Assembly (NCBI GenBank): GCA_038065275.1
Contig: JBBTRH010000009.1
Coordinates: forward strand, 1 to 50,248
Source: Patescibacteria group bacterium
GTDB taxonomy: Bacteria; Patescibacteriota; Patescibacteriia; SBBC01; CAIJZX01
Direction of reading: 5' to 3'
Length of the DNA: 50,248 nucleotides
Below, in pieces: positions 40,650-50,248 of this stretch. Below the pieces are notes generated by a model, which saw only the letters and a list, made by a program, of their open reading frames with translations, was not told the origin of the DNA and ran no database searches. The position numbers and the translations under genes were made by a program. The number at the start of each line of letters is the position of its first letter. Positions within the stretch are counted from its first letter, which is position 1.

Positions 40650-40752
40650 TCACATAACGTATCGGGATAAAAGAAGTTTTGCGGAGTGAAACGGAGCAAA
40701 ATTTTGGTGAGGCACGAGCCGAGTGCCGAACCTTTTATCCCGTGTTAAGTGA
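40650..40752 (+). repeat. attC-like site W
   Basis: tcacatAAC gtatc gggataaaag ...loop... cttttatccc gt GTTaagtga. Confidence 0.7.
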
Positions 40753-40828
40753 CCCGACGACTGAAGGGAGAAGAGCGCAGCGGGGTAAGGCGTAGCGAAG
40801 TGGAGCCGCAAAGTTCAAGCCCGAGCCC

Positions 40829-41410
40829 TTACTTTATTATTAATTCGTTAGAATATGAAGTGCCTTGATATTTGTCAGCTTCAATCCAATCATTTATCCC
40901 ACCCCATAAATCTGCTTGAGATACAGTAAACGTATAGTAAACTAATTTTATACGGTATGTTCCTTCTTTCACTCGTACGCCATCATTACCTCTATATTGA
41001 TTCATTTGTTGAGACCAAGTGTTGATATACTCTTTTCCTGATTCTAGAGTTGTAGCACTATCAACCCATTTCGACGGAGGATCTTGCGGTGTTGGAGCAG
41101 CAATAAACATATTAAGACCTTGATCACTCCATTCATTTTTAGTCTTTTTTTCGATATAAGTCCTTGTCCAAGGTGATGAACCCGGACCAACAAAAATTAT
41201 TGATTTGTCCAAACCGTTAGACACAGTGAACTCAACAGCTTCACCTTTATTATACTCCATTTTGTTTGTTGAAATAGCCACCTTGCCAGATATTTTATTG
41301 TTTTCCTTTTGTTCATTTGTTGTGGGGGTAAATATTTGGAAAATTATGTATGCTCCACCAATAATAACGAGAGTTAGGATAGCAATTGAAAGGTAGTTTT
41401 TCATCTTCAT
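40829..41410 (-). CDS. Cassette ORF: hypothetical secreted/anchored protein (193 aa)
   Basis: N-terminal TM segment (LSIAILTLVIIGGAYIIF). Flanked by the inverted repeats aagttcaagcccgagccctta / taagggctcggacttgaatt. Confidence 0.6.
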   Translation of the reverse strand: MKMKNYLSIAILTLVIIGGAYIIFQIFTPTTNEQKENNKISGKVAISTNKMEYNKGEAVEFTVSNGLDKSIIFVGPGSSPWTRTYIEKKTKNEWSDQGLNMFIAAPTPQDPPSKWVDSATTLESGKEYINTWSQQMNQYRGNDGVRVKEGTYRIKLVYYTFTVSQADLWGGINDWIEADKYQGTSYSNELIIK

Positions 41411-41466
41411 ATCATTATTAAGATTAATATATTATATAAATTTATCTAAGGGCTCGGACTTGAATT

Positions 41467-41546
41467 TCACTTAACGTTCGCGTCTCATCCGCCGCGGACC
41501 CTGAGCGAAGTCGAAGGGGGAGTGGCGGATAGACGCTGTTGTGCGA
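41467..41546 (+). repeat. attC-like site X
   Basis: tcacttAAC gttcg cgtct-C-atccgcc ...loop... ggcggat-agacg ct GTTgtgcga. There is an extra C on the AAC side. Confidence 0.75.
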
Positions 41547-41567
41547 TTTTTCTCCGGCGATGTAGTG

Positions 41568-41846
41568 CTATGAACCATAGTTACATGACATCTCTCTATC
41601 AGGTGTATTGGGCGGGCTGCCGGTGGGAGTTCCGAAACAGCGACGCTCACCTATTGGTAGGCCAAAACACCTGTCAGTAAAGCCGTCAATATAGTTGTCA
41701 CGAACTGAAAAACCAATACACTGTCGCTGCCATGTATGCAGTCCATCAGAACAGACAGGACCACAGAGCGGCCCGCCCGATTCCTTAGGGAAAAAGATTA
41801 TCCCTATCAATATAACGCCCGCGAGAATGAGAATAACTTTTTTCAT
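41568..41846 (-). CDS. Cassette ORF: small Cys-rich secreted protein (92 aa)
   Basis: Signal-like MKKVILILAGVILIGIIFF and 8 Cys residues. Confidence 0.55.
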   Translation of the reverse strand: MKKVILILAGVILIGIIFFPKESGGPLCGPVCSDGLHTWQRQCIGFSVRDNYIDGFTDRCFGLPIGERRCFGTPTGSPPNTPDREMSCNYGS

Positions 41847-41886
41847 AATGGCCCCTGTTTTTTATGATGACTAGCCGGAGAAAATT

Positions 41887-41990
41887 TCGTACAACGTTTG
41901 CGCGTCATGCGCCGTCCGGAACGAGCGGGGCGGTATAATATCGTAACCGCCTAAGCGAGAGAAGGATGGCGTATACGCGCTGTTGTCCGA
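41887..41990 (+). repeat. attC-like site Y
   Basis: tcgtacAAC gtttg cgcgt-C-atgcgcc ...loop... ggcgtat-acgcg ct GTTgtccga. Confidence 0.75.
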
Positions 41991-42050
41991 TCGTACATTT
42001 TTATCTCTCAAAGAAAAGTTCCCGCGCTGTGCACGCCGAAGTTGATTTTT

Positions 42051-48084: not shown

Positions 48085-48092
48085 TGTTTCAC

Positions 48093-48557
48093 TCATTGCC
48101 AACCGTGTTCACTGTAAAAGGTTTTGTTTTTAATACCTTCGAGAGCCTGTCTGATGTATGGAATGATGTTGTCAGGCAGACTATCAAGATCAAACCATGA
48201 TAAATCATCACATTTATCTGGTTCTTTAATTTGAGGCTCACCTTGCCATTGTCGAGCAATAAAAAAGACATCAACTCGGTGATTATTTTCAGAATCGCGC
48301 GAATCCCTTTGCATGACATGAGCGACTTCCAAATCACCGGGCTTTAATATTATTCCCGCCTCTTCCATAGCTTCTCGGACGATGCATGACGTAAAAGTCT
48401 CACCTTCATTTACATGGCCGGCGACCATACTGTACTTACCATCTTCGTATCCTGTGTTGAAACGCCGGAGTAGAAGCACCTTGCCATCCTTCACTAATGT
48501 GAGATATGAAGCGGGAATGAGTTGATGTCTTTTTTTCTTTGCGTGATTACTAGTCAT
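48093..48557 (-). CDS. Cassette ORF: NUDIX hydrolase (154 aa)
   Basis: Nudix box AGHVNEGETFTSCIVREAMEEAGI. Confidence 0.85.
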   Translation of the reverse strand: MTSNHAKKKRHQLIPASYLTLVKDGKVLLLRRFNTGYEDGKYSMVAGHVNEGETFTSCIVREAMEEAGIILKPGDLEVAHVMQRDSRDSENNHRVDVFFIARQWQGEPQIKEPDKCDDLSWFDLDSLPDNIIPYIRQALEGIKNKTFYSEHGWQ

Positions 48558-48696
48558 GTTTGATTACTTGAGGCAATGAGTGAAATGGCGTACAACGTTT
48601 CGGGCTAGCCGAAGTTGCGTAGTCCGCGTGGCGGTACAATTTTACCACCGCCTAAGCGGACAAGCAATTTGGGTGAGCGAGTTATTTCTCTTTGTT

Positions 48697-48999
48697 TTAT
48701 GTGGCAAGTTCTAAGATTTTGACTTTGTTTTTCAAAACGCTTGACAGTTCTTCTTCCTGTACCGCCAAGTCAAAGCGGGACTGCAAGTTAAGCCAAAACT
48801 GCGGTGAAGTTCGAAAATACTTCCCTAAGCGAAGAGCGGTATCGGCACTAATCGCCCGCTCTCCATGGATAATCTCATTGATCCGGCGCGGGGCAACATC
48901 AACATCTTTTGCCAACCGGTATTGGCTGATGGCGAAAGGCTCCAAAAACTCTTCCATGAGTATCTCGCCCGGATGAATTGGTTGCATTTTTTTGGTCAT
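48697..48999 (-). CDS. higA: HigA-type antitoxin (HTH, Xre family)
   Basis: MQPIHPGEILMEEFLEPFAISQYRLAKDVDVAPRRINEIIHGERAISADTALRLGKYF is a classic HigA/VapI sequence. Confidence 0.88.
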   Translation of the reverse strand: MTKKMQPIHPGEILMEEFLEPFAISQYRLAKDVDVAPRRINEIIHGERAISADTALRLGKYFRTSPQFWLNLQSRFDLAVQEEELSSVLKNKVKILELAT

Positions 49000-49019
49000 A
49001 GTAATGTAGGTTATTCTCG

Positions 49020-49304
49020 TTAATGATGATAATCGACGATTTCTACTTCGTAAGCGTCACCCTGACGCCAGTTGAAACAAATTCTCCACTGGTCATTGAT
49101 GCGAATACTGTGTTGTCCGCGCCGGTTGCCCTTGAGTTTCTCCAGGCGATTCGCCCGGGGTACTCGTAAGTCTTGAATATTCAGGGCCGCATCGATCATC
49201 CAGAGTTTTCGCAAGGCAGTTCGTTGGATATCTGGAGGCAGTTTTGGCGAATATTCCCGGTTAAATATTCCAGCCGCTTCCTTTGATTTAAAGCTCTTTA
49301 TCAT
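49020..49304 (-). CDS. higB: HigB-type toxin (RelE/ParE superfamily, plasmid maintenance system killer)
   Basis: MIKSFKSKEAAGIFNREYSPKLPPDIQRTALRKLWMIDAA...LKGNRRGQHSIRINDQWRICF. The toxin lies upstream of the antitoxin, as in higBA. Confidence 0.88.
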   Translation of the reverse strand: MIKSFKSKEAAGIFNREYSPKLPPDIQRTALRKLWMIDAALNIQDLRVPRANRLEKLKGNRRGQHSIRINDQWRICFNWRQGDAYEVEIVDYHH

Positions 49305-49530
49305 GCGATAGGGGTATAATAACGTATTACAATAATACTGTCAAGCGTTAACAGTAGCAAGAAATAACTCGCTCACCGGTTAGCCCGTGTTAGCTGATGT
49401 ATTCCTTTTCTTTTCTTCTCTTGCTAAGAGAAGGCGGGGGGAAAAATCTTTCAAATTTTTCTTTGATCGGTCTCTCTACAATAATGAAGCGGGGTCCGAC
49501 CGATTGGCCGAACCCCATCACGATCCCCAT

Positions 49531-50004
49531 TCATTTCCAGGTACCAGCCATTCTGAAGAAGCTCAACTGTTCGTGAATGCGAGGTGCAATCTCACCTACA
49601 ACCCTCAGGAATTCAGGCAGTGCGTCCCGGACTGCCTTCGTGTACCAGGCAGGAAGGGTCAGGCGATACCCATCATAGGGGCCAGTGAATTTCCAAATGG
49701 TATGGCTTCCGGGTGTGATCAGTGTTCCAACCGTTATGACCCACATGCCCTCGACGTTATCGACATCGAGAGTACCAGACACCCCCGTTTCCAGGGGCTG
49801 ATCTCCTGGCAGGTGCGCAAGTCCCGTGTAAATACCATGTAGCGGGACTTGGAATACTCTGCTCTGCCTCTCCTTTACACGGAGCTTCCTCAGGAAAGGC
49901 ATCACGATCCCGAAAATCGCCTCAACCTCCCTCCGGTAACGATCGACATTCCCCGATCCACGGATGATTTGCTGGGTATCTTCTGGCGTGCAGTGTTCTT
50001 TCAC
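49531..50004 (-). CDS. Cassette ORF: hypothetical protein (157 aa)
   Basis: Long ORF with no motif recognised. Confidence 0.5.
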   Translation of the reverse strand: MKEHCTPEDTQQIIRGSGNVDRYRREVEAIFGIVMPFLRKLRVKERQSRVFQVPLHGIYTGLAHLPGDQPLETGVSGTLDVDNVEGMWVITVGTLITPGSHTIWKFTGPYDGYRLTLPAWYTKAVRDALPEFLRVVGEIAPRIHEQLSFFRMAGTWK

Positions 50005-50187
50005 AACTTCCTCCTGGTCCTGTCTCCAGGACGCCTCTCTCGAGTTGCGGAGTGTACATCAGCCGCTTTGGCCACACTTGGTCTACCACTAATAGATACT
50101 TGTTGTCAACATACCTTGGCTAAGAAAGAAATTTGAAGGATCTTTTACCCCCCTCGGGCAGTAGCCCGGAAAAAGAAAAGGAATATG

Positions 50188-50248
50188 TCAGCTAACTCGT
50201 TATTATGCGAACTGGGGCGGGTTGGCACCCTTATTATTGCATATTTTG
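50188..50248 (+). repeat. attC-like site K (left arm only; cut by window edge)
   Basis: tcagctAAC tcgtt... Its left 9-mer is the exact reverse complement of the GTTagctga that opens this cassette at 49389. Confidence 0.55.

Follow-up and report, generated by a model that had tools for sequence, protein, structure and literature searches.

A 13-cassette integron-like array near a Xer/IntI-related recombinase gene lacking the IntI insertion in a Patescibacteria (CPR) genome

What has brought together a series of short gene units, separated by imperfect palindromes, at the right end of the window (the whole stretch of 50,248 nucleotides analysed here), and which enzyme could have moved them? The window, from a Patescibacteria (CPR) genome, was confirmed to end in a genuine array of mobile gene cassettes, 13 in number; the region 40.6–50.2 kb is very probably a chromosomal integron-like array, anchored at an attI-like site (K) near a Xer/IntI-related recombinase without the IntI insertion. 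No published description of such a system was found in the literature.

Palindromic sites: The 13 imperfect palindromes (40656–49391) lie where the original prediction had placed them and have the common layout TTTC-N4-AAC, 5 nt, stem, loop, stem, 2 nt, GTT-N4-GA. A covariance model trained on eight sites recovered Y, E, H and W, all held out from training, and matched nothing further anywhere in the 50 kb with E<0.5. Site coordinates are given from AAC to GTT:

39312..40586, + strand: glutamate dehydrogenase-type backbone gene, 424 aa; PF02812 and PF00208 on an identical product
40630..40657, + strand: orphan left R-box arm AAGAAATTTCTGGGTATTTCACATAA, distal array end
40656..40746, + strand: site W, last attC-like site; model R2 41.2 bits, E 4e-6
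41473..41540, + strand: site X; R1 70.6 bits
41893..41984, + strand: site Y, held out; R1 53.9 bits, E 9e-12
43436..43484, + strand: site A; R1 72.9 bits
44127..44175, + strand: site B, near-identical to A and C, apex GCGAAGC; R1 74.8 bits
44644..44692, + strand: site C; R1 73.3 bits
45076..45124, + strand: site D, near-identical to G, bulged C in the 5' arm; R1 80.1 bits
45602..45766, + strand: site E, 165 nt, near-identical to H, held out; R1 31.2 bits, R2 63.2 bits
46119..46173, + strand: site F; R1 77.8 bits
46798..46846, + strand: site G; R1 80.8 bits
47191..47355, + strand: site H, 165 nt, held out; R1 33.7 bits, R2 63.5 bits
48032..48078, + strand: site I; R1 63.2 bits
48594..49391, + strand: site J, three-way-junction attC-like; chain walk, fold without insert −45.8 kcal/mol
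50186..50248, + strand: K, attI-like junction; no hairpin, right side conserved

The loop of W contains the element GTTTTGCGGAGTGAAACGGAGCAAAA, which is also present in Gracilibacteria and Thermodesulfobacterium sites; that of J encloses higA-higB in a branch formed by a 19-bp inverted repeat, GGGTGAGCGAGTTATTTCT / AGAAATAACTCGCTCACC. At the distal end the array abuts, as had been predicted, a gdhA-type gene (Glu/Leu/Phe/Val dehydrogenase), which forms its boundary. The orphan arm has no complementary partner on its left side; it is what remains either of the left arm that the original attI had or of the end of an older cassette, and its sequence type adjoins attI in other lineages (L021, L107, L126, L141, L147).

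Pairing between neighbouring sites: The right N4 of each site and the left N4 of the next were complementary at 51/52 positions, the sole mismatch being in the pair X-Y, exactly as claimed beforehand; non-cognate pairs gave a mean of 1.42/4, and the two ends of one site, said to be generally non-complementary, paired at 22/52. On recount against chance, 0/200,000 permutations of the chain reached the observed value (p<5e-6). After a fixed 2-nt mismatch, the flanks of neighbours pair for ~14 nt further past the 9-mer, gap-free in 10/13 pairs; by eye, the outer flanks of X-Y and Y-A also pair with a one-base shift, and in W-X a ~70-nt insertion precedes the outer stem. That the palindromes are static intergenic elements (terminators, REP-like repeats or transposase-moved MITEs) and no recombination sites is hardly credible: their location after stop codons and their strong hairpins would fit, but terminators and REPs leave the cross-site pairing unexplained, as they do the half-site at the recombinase and the allele switch exactly at AAC (both below), the stems are followed by no T-tract, and the scanned ORFs gave no match to a transposase family.

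Folding and covariation: Reconstituted junctions (95–140 nt) fold at −26.6 to −45.7 kcal/mol, whereas shuffled versions gave −6 to −16 and the array context −14 to −28; the reconstituted 213-nt sites E and H gave −58 and −63 kcal/mol. The bottom strand was the stabler in 12/12 junctions. Fifteen sequences, namely the window plus 14 related loci, supplied 38 sites, in which 95.2% of the inner-stem cells were paired (slid controls, 23–48%), both-side changes occurred in all 12 pairs, and 130 compensatory cells were counted vs 33 in shuffles; the alignment, having been fitted to the model structure, is biased toward it. The loop motif GCGAAGC was found on the matched strand of 13 sites and its complement in none, in parallel with the GAA and stability bias known for classical attC bottom strands (PMC5027507). 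With the minus strand of the window as the functional top strand, the array therefore begins at its right end (K) and finishes at gdhA.

Cassette genes: The cassettes are, as predicted, richer in A+T than the backbone (G+C 0.42–0.53 vs 0.56–0.64 in most of the backbone). The following genes were assigned:

40829..41410, − strand: cassette W, 193 aa, hydrophobic N-terminus; no family match
41568..41846, − strand: cassette X, 92 aa, hydrophobic N-terminus; no family match
42051..43193, − strand: cassette Y, 380 aa; no family match
43577..43921, − strand: cassette A, 114 aa; no family match
44200..44619, − strand: cassette B, 139 aa; no family match
44771..44992, + strand: cassette C, 73 aa, inverted vs the array, TTGACA box upstream
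45152..45541, − strand: cassette D, NUDIX hydrolase, 129 aa; PF00293 E 1e-18, PADLOC PDC-S07 E 6e-16
45850..46053, + strand: cassette E, 67 aa, inverted, TTGACA box upstream
46219..46689, − strand: cassette F, 156 aa, hydrophobic N-terminus
46958..47122, − strand: cassette G, 54 aa, two Cys pairs (CxxC, CxxC)
47461..47955, + strand: cassette H, SLOG/LOG-like, 164 aa, inverted, TTGACA box upstream; PF18306 E 1e-38
48093..48557, − strand: cassette I, NUDIX hydrolase, 154 aa; PF00293 E 1e-19
48697..49304, − strand: higB (49020–49304) and higA (48697–48999) in the loop of site J; PF05015, TIGR02607
49531..50004, − strand: first cassette gene, adjoining attI, 157 aa; no family match

The predicted cargo of two NUDIX genes and HigBA was borne out by family matches (higBA: PF05015 E 2e-20; TIGR02607 109 bits vs cut-off 47.7); the promoter scan gave higBA its own promoter-like site, TTGACA-17-TATTAT, from 49344 to 49316. 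The cassette H protein matched TIGR00725 with E 9e-23, under the cut-off of that model. The opposite gene orientation in 3/13 cassettes counts against the integron-like reading.

Site K: K (AAC at 50194), originally taken as one more palindrome of the shared layout, proved to be a half-site in which the inner palindrome is absent (fold z-score −0.29). Its left part, TCAGCTAA, belongs to the first cassette; from the C of its AAC (50196) the conserved attI runs rightwards past the window edge in the order TCGTT, recombinase-arm-like ATTATGCGAAC, second copy TTATTATTGCATA. The right side is conserved upstream of ~20 CPR recombinase genes, and the behaviour of K as the attI of the array is supported. 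A sigma-70-consensus promoter facing the cassettes was looked for at attI and none was found, which also counts against the integron-like reading.

Recombinase: Contig L001 matches the last 864 nt of the window with 0 mismatches and encodes a tyrosine recombinase of 273 aa, its ATG 58 nt past the window edge, with K 110 nt upstream of it, transcribed divergently from the cassette genes. In the window itself, where none had been seen before, no tyrosine recombinase was found in 20 scanned backbone ORFs (19 of the 27 ORFs of at least 180 aa left of the array and a 107-aa thioredoxin; the remaining ones are nested in or overlap the scanned ones). The recombinase passes the NF040815 XerA model (224.5 bits; cut-off 220); with the TIGR02249 integron-integrase model it gave 215.9 bits, below the cut-off of 265, in a match split into two stretches. 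The IntI-specific insertion of 43–44 aa is absent in alignments to VchIntIA (2a3v) and IntI1; identity to IntI1 is 35%, the SAM_4 N-domain and the C-terminal SPL motif being common to both, and of the structural relatives, Pyrococcus XerA (4a8e) is the best match in sequence. Since the defining insertion is absent and the TIGR02249 score falls under the cut-off, the protein is classed, from its sequence, as a member of a Xer/IntI-related family and not as a strict-sense IntI; the integrase presumed out of view thus has its likely counterpart in this tyrosine recombinase, not in an IntI proper.

Polymorphism, linkage and distribution: L002 and L004, from one metagenome, are identical over 1055 nt right of AAC and unrelated to its left, which is cassette polymorphism exactly at the predicted crossover; one contig of a different sample starts precisely at the AAC where the two diverge, and contigs L006, L007, L017 and L023 start at AAC or at most 5 nt from it. 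At least 120 metagenome stretches contain the exact 18-mer AACTCGTTATTATGCGAA; its left flanks vary widely among the 80 of them that were listed. The original prediction of an integron-like array with crossover at the conserved triplet is supported by the tyrosine recombinase gene past the right edge, by K as attI, by these two alleles and by the contig that starts at their AAC. Homologous short recombinases are flanked by the same site architecture in 26 genome loci (hosts: CPR, Desulfitobacterium, Saccharibacillus, Flavobacterium, spirochaetes) with constant polarity in 89/89 sites: each site that lies upstream is on the strand of the recombinase, each that lies downstream on the other one. 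In 37 metagenome loci, 69/70 sites share the strand of the attI motif and precede it on the 5' side. Cassette genes in L024, L035 and L065 are antisense to the matched strand. In some metagenome lineages, up to 13 kb around the attI motif contain no recombinase gene, and linkage of the two is therefore not obligatory.

An ordinary integron or CALIN, with classical attC sites, a canonical IntI elsewhere in the genome and the short recombinase incidental, is very unlikely. AAC/GTT triplets, R and L boxes, site lengths (47–192 nt) and cassette sizes are attC-like, and CALINs are common (PMC9668308); against this, the arrays are linked to the short recombinase with fixed polarity in 26/26 loci, attC-aadA1 is not matched by the CPR-type model, and the best 120 homologues are all of 264–318 aa, five of them, aligned with IntI1, lacking the insertion. 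The present sites, moreover, carry extra bases on the AAC arm; such bases, engineered into VCR2 or attCoxa2, strongly reduced bottom-strand recombination by IntI1 (PMC5027507).

It is possible, if doubtful, that the recombinase is the housekeeping chromosome-dimer resolvase ('Cand' Xer subgroup, candidate phyla), K its dif and the cassettes small hairpin elements that pile up at dif by exploiting Xer in the manner of CTXphi-type IMEX; as a variant of the integron-like reading, this does not contradict it. The score over the XerA equivalog cut-off, relatives at 60–76% identity across Patescibacteria classes, an attI motif that can be distant from any recombinase gene and the dif-type layout of K (11-bp arm ATTTCnnnnAA, 6–7-nt centre, arm TTATGCGAACT) speak for it. 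The latter arm matches the B. subtilis dif arm TTATGTAAACT at 9/11 positions. CPR Xer-like proteins were presumptively assigned a Xer role by Smyshlyaev et al. (PMC8138268), and exactly such a Xer-exploiting ancestor was proposed for integrons by Escudero et al. (PMC4792948). However, a consistent GC skew switch at the site was not seen in 10 loci, and the same system occurs in Desulfitobacterium, Saccharibacillus and Flavobacterium. These three genera presumably also encode XerC/XerD, as is usual in their phyla, and the family can therefore be a dedicated integrase.

Mechanism: For the integron-like array, single-strand hairpin recombination of the integron style by a Xer-like enzyme is the most likely mechanism. 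On the + strand, a cassette runs from the C of one AAC through the AA of the next, in the order inner palindrome, right R-box arm (GTT-N4-GA...), gene (usually one, on the minus strand), left R-box arm (...TTTC-N4-AA). In the free circle the two R-box arms and the ~14-nt outer flanks would pair together, and the + strand (bottom strand, antisense to the genes) would fold into a ~40-bp hairpin: an R box mimicking the attI left arm, a bulge of 3 nt (GTY) immediately 3' of AAC, an L box (TATACG-like) mimicking the attI right arm TTATGCGAA, and a variable loop, often GCGAAGC-capped. The substrate would thus be single-stranded, the bottom strand presumably the one cleaved and the 273-aa recombinase the probable catalyst; the junction would be resolved afterwards by replication, as in integrons and CTXphi integration. 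The I2 helix (the IntI insertion) is held necessary for attC recombination by IntI (PMC9668308; PMC4792948), and a hairpin reaction without it is therefore only putative.

Comparison with known systems: Classical integrons (IntI, attI, attC; for example In2 of R100 or the Vibrio superintegron) share with the present system a tyrosine recombinase adjoining attI, an array of mostly single-gene, co-oriented cassettes ending in an imperfect palindrome with conserved AAC/GTT, pairing of the R-box half at the cassette start with that at its end, a stabler bottom strand with GAA-rich loops, and toxin-antitoxin genes. They differ in the 43–44-aa insertion of IntI, absent here; in the central spacer (2 nt in attC, 5 nt here); in the R box (7 bp vs 9–11 bp with a ~14-bp outer stem); and in the RYYY consensus, which the present N4 does not follow. 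Integrons are reported rare or absent in CPR, Bacillota, Bacteroidota and Spirochaetota (PMC9024848), the very phyla of the present hosts. The present attI, unlike the classical one, need not be linked to the recombinase gene; the 3-nt bulge, sometimes with a bulged C, is on the AAC arm, whereas in classical sites it is the opposite arm that has extrahelical bases, and the asymmetry of the present sites runs the opposite way to that of classical attC.

In CTXphi-type IMEX, XerCD acts at dif and a folded single-stranded hairpin mimics the duplex core site (PMC4792948); an Xer-type enzyme without I2-like domain on a hairpin and exchange of one strand only, both proposed here, as well as tandem accumulation at a single chromosomal site, are likenesses. 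IMEX are phages, whereas the present elements are gene cassettes of 0.4–1.6 kb, 13 in series, with a conserved bulge beside the cleavage site; IMEX use the housekeeping Xer, and the present enzyme is presumably an extra paralogue in non-CPR hosts. XerS/difSL and archaeal XerA/dif likewise have a single Xer-like recombinase, and the XerS site immediately adjoins its gene; cassette collection at these sites is not reported. A pdif site is a 28-bp duplex for XerC/XerD, successive sites alternate in orientation, and they are not known to have hairpins, a complementary flank chain or an adjacent recombinase gene. The pdif modules of Acinetobacter plasmids (PMC7399989) are, as here, gene modules with Xer-type boundary sites; hairpins, flank chain and adjacent recombinase gene distinguish the present array from them. 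Archaeal integrons (Ghaly et al. 2022) likewise come from metagenome-assembled genomes of small-celled uncultured lineages, with attI on the downstream side of the integrase gene both there and in the present Bacillota and Flavobacterium loci; archaeal IntIs carry an additional domain (PMC9668308), which the present recombinase family lacks. Set beside these, the system looks like a widespread, undescribed cousin of integrons.

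Thirteen imperfect palindromes (sites W, X, Y and A–J, left to right) were found where the original prediction had placed them, in the region 40.6–50.2 kb; their common layout is TTTC-N4-AAC, 5 nt (GTYYN), stem, loop, stem, 2 nt (CT/GT/TT) and GTT-N4-GA. The claim that the right flank of each site is complementary to the left flank of the next held on recount: the right N4 of site n and the left N4 of site n+1 were complementary at 51 of 52 positions, vs a mean of 1.42/4 for non-cognate pairs and 22/52 for the two ends of one site; the observed total was reached by 0 of 200,000 permutations. 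Further out, a fixed 2-nt mismatch (TG vs TT) was followed by flank pairing over ~14 nt in 10 of 13 neighbour pairs; by eye, the outer flanks of X–Y and Y–A pair with a one-base shift and the W–X pair has an insertion of ~70 nt. Covariance model R1 (alignment A4) was trained on eight sites, with Y, E, H and W kept out; it recovered Y (54 bits), E and H (31–34 bits) and W, scored 63–81 bits on the plus strand vs 9–19 bits on the minus strand, and gave no further site anywhere in the window at E<0.5. Rfam search of the window returned tRNAs only and no match for the sites; the tRNA genes are eleven (4676–16602 and 37258–38004). Low-G+C stretches (0.47–0.51) away from the array, at 5–9, 15–16 and 29–31 kb, contained no array-type site.

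The rightmost element, K (AAC at 50194), had been listed as a further palindrome; no inner palindrome was found in it, and the segment from 50186 to the recombinase ATG folds at −10.0 kcal/mol (z −0.29). K is an attI-like half-site. Upstream of about 20 recombinase genes of CPR (Patescibacteria), TCGTT-ATTATGCGAA is conserved to the right of the AAC, with a second copy ~40 nt on; to the left TTTC alone is conserved. A weak palindrome from K to GTTAGAC, 76 nt rightward, was rejected, being absent from other loci and insignificant in folding. Because K is a half-site with the crossover at its AAC, the array starts at K and has its far end at W, beside gdhA (Glu dehydrogenase-type gene); a cassette begins with the C of an AAC and finishes with the AA of the following one, and the coding (top) strand is the minus strand.

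Cassette polymorphism, expected at this junction, was observed within one metagenome (ERZ1292631): contig L002 is the same as the window across the AAC of K, and L004 is identical over 1055 nt right of the AAC (0 mismatches) with an unrelated left side, found nowhere in the window, so that the two diverge at the AAC. L006, from another sample, begins exactly at the AAC, and three genome contigs begin ≤5 nt from it. The exact 28-mer of the window's attI had no match in JGI metagenomes; the exact 18-mer AACTCGTTATTATGCGAA was found in at least 120 metagenome stretches, the left flanks being many and different among the 80 listed. That the palindromes are static fits these data poorly and is hardly credible. 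In some metagenome lineages attI lies away from the recombinase gene. Many CPR genome contigs (L007–L032, L056) start 90–200 nt upstream of the recombinase gene; the attI junction seems to be a systematic break point of assemblies, and arrays would thereby be missed in genome bins.

Single features of the array in the window:

40620–40657: orphan arm left of W, AAGAAATTTCTGGGTATTTCACATAAC, containing the palindrome AGAAATTTCT
40670–40720: loop of site W, containing GTTTTGCGGAGTGAAACGGAGCAAAA
44075–44129 and 50140–50196: cassettes A and J, ends in common (~50 nt), genes different
44715–44745, 45795–45825 and 47385–47415: TTGACA box directly behind the site and, ~17 nt later, a TA-rich hexamer, in cassettes C, E and H
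48594–49391: site J, 798 nt, a three-way structure with higBA in the loop, inside a 19-bp inverted repeat; not a separate cassette
49344 to 49316: strong promoter-like element of higBA within site J, TTGACA-17-TATTAT
49531–50004, minus strand: last complete gene

Nearly the same element as in the loop of W occurs in site loops of a Gracilibacteria and a Thermodesulfobacterium locus (L030, about 8150–8190 and 9810–9850; L033, about 9520–9600), the Thermodesulfobacterium locus also having W's right flank GTTAAGTGACC; the loop element is a conserved module found across phyla. The common end of cassettes A and J (...TCGGGCAGTAGCCC.GAAAAAGAAAAGGAATAT.TCAGCTAAC plus its partner) also adjoins attI in three metagenome contigs (L105, L124, L162). 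The orphan arm recurs nearly unchanged directly left of attI elsewhere (L021 2125–2153, L107, L126, L141, L147); it may represent either attI's own left arm or a cassette end of very wide occurrence.

The last complete gene is also present on L001 (1864 nt), which matches the last 864 nt of the window identically and extends 1 kb further; the names of the samples indicate Hainich groundwater. On L001 the integrase presumed to be out of view was located: a tyrosine recombinase (273 aa; PF13495 and PF00589) starting 58 nt past the window's end, at a distance of 110 nt from K's AAC, on the plus strand and therefore divergent from the cassette genes. Model scores (NCBIfam) were: NF040815, recomb_XerA_Arch, 224.5 bits vs an equivalog cut-off of 220; XerC and XerD, 181 and 178 bits, under their cut-offs; TIGR02249 (IntI), 215.9 bits vs a cut-off of 265, in two separate stretches. 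Alignment with VchIntIA (2a3v) and IntI1 of R100 was end-to-end except for a gap of 43–44 aa at the IntI insertion. Of the predicted IntI-type recombinase, the tyrosine recombinase is thus present and adjoins the array; the IntI insertion is missing and the TIGR02249 cut-off is not reached. Homologues with 60–76% identity occur across the Patescibacteria group (best 120: 264–318 aa), matching the Xer-like subgroup that Smyshlyaev et al. call 'Cand' (PMC8138268). A classical IntI acting on the sites from elsewhere in the genome, with a Xer-type gene directly beside the array, fits the data poorly and is very improbable. No sigma-70 consensus Pc was found by promoter scan in the attI–recombinase interval; promoters of CPR may deviate from it. 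L004 1230–2160, beyond the right end of the recombinase gene, has a G+C-rich stretch, then two small ORFs on the minus strand (89 and 70 aa, without Pfam match) and then RNase HII; attC-like sites were not found in this part. In Desulfitobacterium (L035 9674–10831) and Flavobacterium (L065 9707–10822) the recombinase frame is open for ~100 codons upstream of the homologous part, the extended frames from TTG being 385 aa (L035) and 371 aa (L065); these codons may add an N-terminal domain to recombinases of the co-directional type.

Circle-type rejoined flanks (95–140 nt) fold at −26.6 to −45.7 kcal/mol, vs −6 to −16 kcal/mol for shuffles and −14 to −28 kcal/mol for the same cores in array context; the reconstitutions of E and H (213 nt) gave −58 and −63 kcal/mol vs −42 and −44 kcal/mol in array context. 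In these predicted folds the plus strand was more stable than the minus strand for 12 of 12 reconstituted sites. The predicted shape (printed structures of A, D, F and I) is a ~40-bp stem with a mismatch ~10 bp out and a 3-nt bulge directly 3' of AAC; D and F are predicted to have a bulged C as well. Among 38 sites (window and 14 related loci; alignment fitted to the model) the 12 inner pairs were 95.2% paired with both-side changes in all; compensatory cells were 130 vs 33 in shuffles, and slid controls were 23–48% paired. GCGAAGC is a very stable DNA mini-hairpin motif; it was found on the matched strand in 13 of 100 sites and its complement in 0, and GCGNAGC in 27 sites on the matched strand vs 4 as complement. 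Assignment of the plus strand as top strand, first suggested by its longer 5' arm (as in classical top strands), was rejected in view of the half-site K at the recombinase end and the complete W at the far end, and further of the genes antisense to the plus strand, GAA-type loops on it and its better folding. Classical attC-aadA1 scored 4.7 bits with R1 on each strand, and R1 was therefore of no use for orienting the sites.

The right arm of attI, TTATGCGAA, is similar to the L box of the sites (TATACGA-like), and the left arm is similar to the R box, so that the duplex core of attI is mimicked by the hairpin. The most likely reading, held with good confidence, is that the folded bottom strand recombines with attI in the manner of integrons: the bottom strand of a cassette would fold and recombine with attI at AA/C, the neighbouring Xer-like enzyme would catalyse strand exchange, and replication would complete the recombination. 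A variant, not exclusive of this reading, is that in CPR the enzyme is the housekeeping Xer, K its dif (the chromosome-dimer resolution site) and the cassettes guests resembling IMEX (CTXphi-type elements exploiting Xer); such a Xer-plus-IMEX ancestor of integrons was postulated by Escudero et al. (2016), who also pointed out that no known Xer system had specialised in single strands (PMC4792948). A dif has two inverted arms of ~11 bp and a centre of 6–8 bp; around a ~7-nt centre, the two arms match each other at 6/11 positions in K and 8/11 in L013 (by eye); GC skew showed no consistent switch at the site among 10 loci. The variant is possible, if rather unlikely; were the CPR enzyme the only Xer and attI its dif, the system would be a living example of that ancestor.

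The cargo was much as predicted: two NUDIX hydrolases (both matching PADLOC candidate PDC-S07), HigB and HigA, and, for the supposed small secreted proteins, small proteins with hydrophobic N-termini; a SLOG/LOG-like protein and several proteins without family match were found in addition. The gene is on the minus strand in 10 of 13 cassettes and inverted in C, E and H; the TTGACA boxes of these three, absent from the list of the consensus promoter scan, suggest that inverted cassettes may have their own promoters. Exact-protein look-up gave no record for the NUDIX gene and, for the SLOG gene, the same neighbour with no alternative context.

For the distribution of the family, recombinase loci were scanned at one genome per species (80 loci), and a second covariance model, R2 (38 sites), detected 89 sites in 26 of the 80. 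Two layouts were found: 37 sites were on the recombinase strand, upstream of the gene (in 13 CPR loci, in Marispirochaeta and in one Saprospirales locus), and 52 were on the strand opposite to it, downstream of the gene (Desulfitobacterium sp. Sab5, Saccharibacillus kuerlensis, Flavobacterium difficile, F. enshiense, other Bacillota, Sediminibacterium and others); the other two configurations of position and strand had 0 of the 89. In both layouts the 3' end of the matched strand faces the recombinase, and the matched strand is antisense to the cassette genes (L024, L035, L065). Sites of Desulfitobacterium and Saccharibacillus have the 5-nt and 2-nt spacers and the chain of complementary flanks seen in the window, and Desulfitobacterium has an attI-like junction after the recombinase stop codon; walks along the chain from attI succeeded in L010, L015, L021, L024 (six steps), L025 and L030. 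In metagenome loci, 69 of 70 sites are on the same strand as the attI motif and 5' of it. The sole exception, L142 1123–1231 on the 3' side, may be part of a second array or a rearrangement. In one metagenome lineage (L111, L112, L144, L168) a tRNA-like gene (by eye) lies on the opposite strand within ~100 nt after the attI motif and its two repeats, in place of the recombinase gene; no recombinase gene was found within up to 13 kb, so that the enzyme can act in trans.

It is tentatively proposed, at somewhat less than even confidence, that these loci form a large undescribed sister family of integrons, with a Xer-like integrase lacking I2 (the IntI-specific insertion) and mirror-image attC asymmetry, in Patescibacteria, Bacillota, Bacteroidota, Spirochaetota and others, the enzyme in CPR being perhaps the sole Xer with attI as dif. 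Literature searches on integrons of CPR, on cassette arrays linked to Xer and on IntI lacking the additional domain gave no description of it, subscription journals being outside the coverage. If true, this would be a hidden mobile-gene pool in very small genomes, would account for the CPR assembly breaks next to the recombinase gene, and would make the Xer/IMEX origin of integrons experimentally testable, because cultured hosts (F. difficile, F. enshiense, S. kuerlensis and Desulfitobacterium sp. Sab5) carry the system.

Integron criteria were taken sensu Messier & Roy 2001 and Cury et al. 2016. The related sequences (100 sites in 27 sequences, i.e., the window and 26 related loci) contain attC-type palindromes with AAC/GTT, paired R''/R' boxes, L boxes and variable loops; AAC..GTT length is 47–192 nt (94 of 100 sites measured), and N4 departs from RYYY. 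An attI-like site (K) lies next to the recombinase gene with insertion at G/TT (AA/C), alleles diverging and contigs breaking at AAC. Integrons have been defined by the integrase insertion thought indispensable for recognising folded attC, and according to reports they hardly occur in Bacillota and are not known from CPR: with IntegronFinder 2.0, a single complete integron was reported for Firmicutes as a whole and none for CPR (PMC9024848), and archaeal IntIs were defined by the additional domain (Ghaly et al., PMC9668308). If the platform works without the insertion and with unpaired bases on the other arm, hairpin cassette capture would prove older and more widespread than the IntI clade. 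In the classical reference (aadA1 attC of R100; orientation relative to intI1 and aadA1 verified) the extra bases are on the gene-adjacent coding-strand arm, and the bottom-strand extrahelical bases are therefore opposite AAC, as reported by Nivina et al. (PMC5027507), whereas in the window family they are on the arm carrying AAC (strand antisense to genes), as a 5-nt vs a 2-nt spacer and a bulged C in five sites. With IntI1, extrahelical bases on the AAC arm lower bottom-strand recombination of VCR2/attCoxa2 by three to four orders of magnitude (PMC5027507). Extra bases on the AAC arm together with the missing IntI insertion argue that strand choice would work differently in the window family, which, if true, would be a natural test case for strand choice without the I2 helix.
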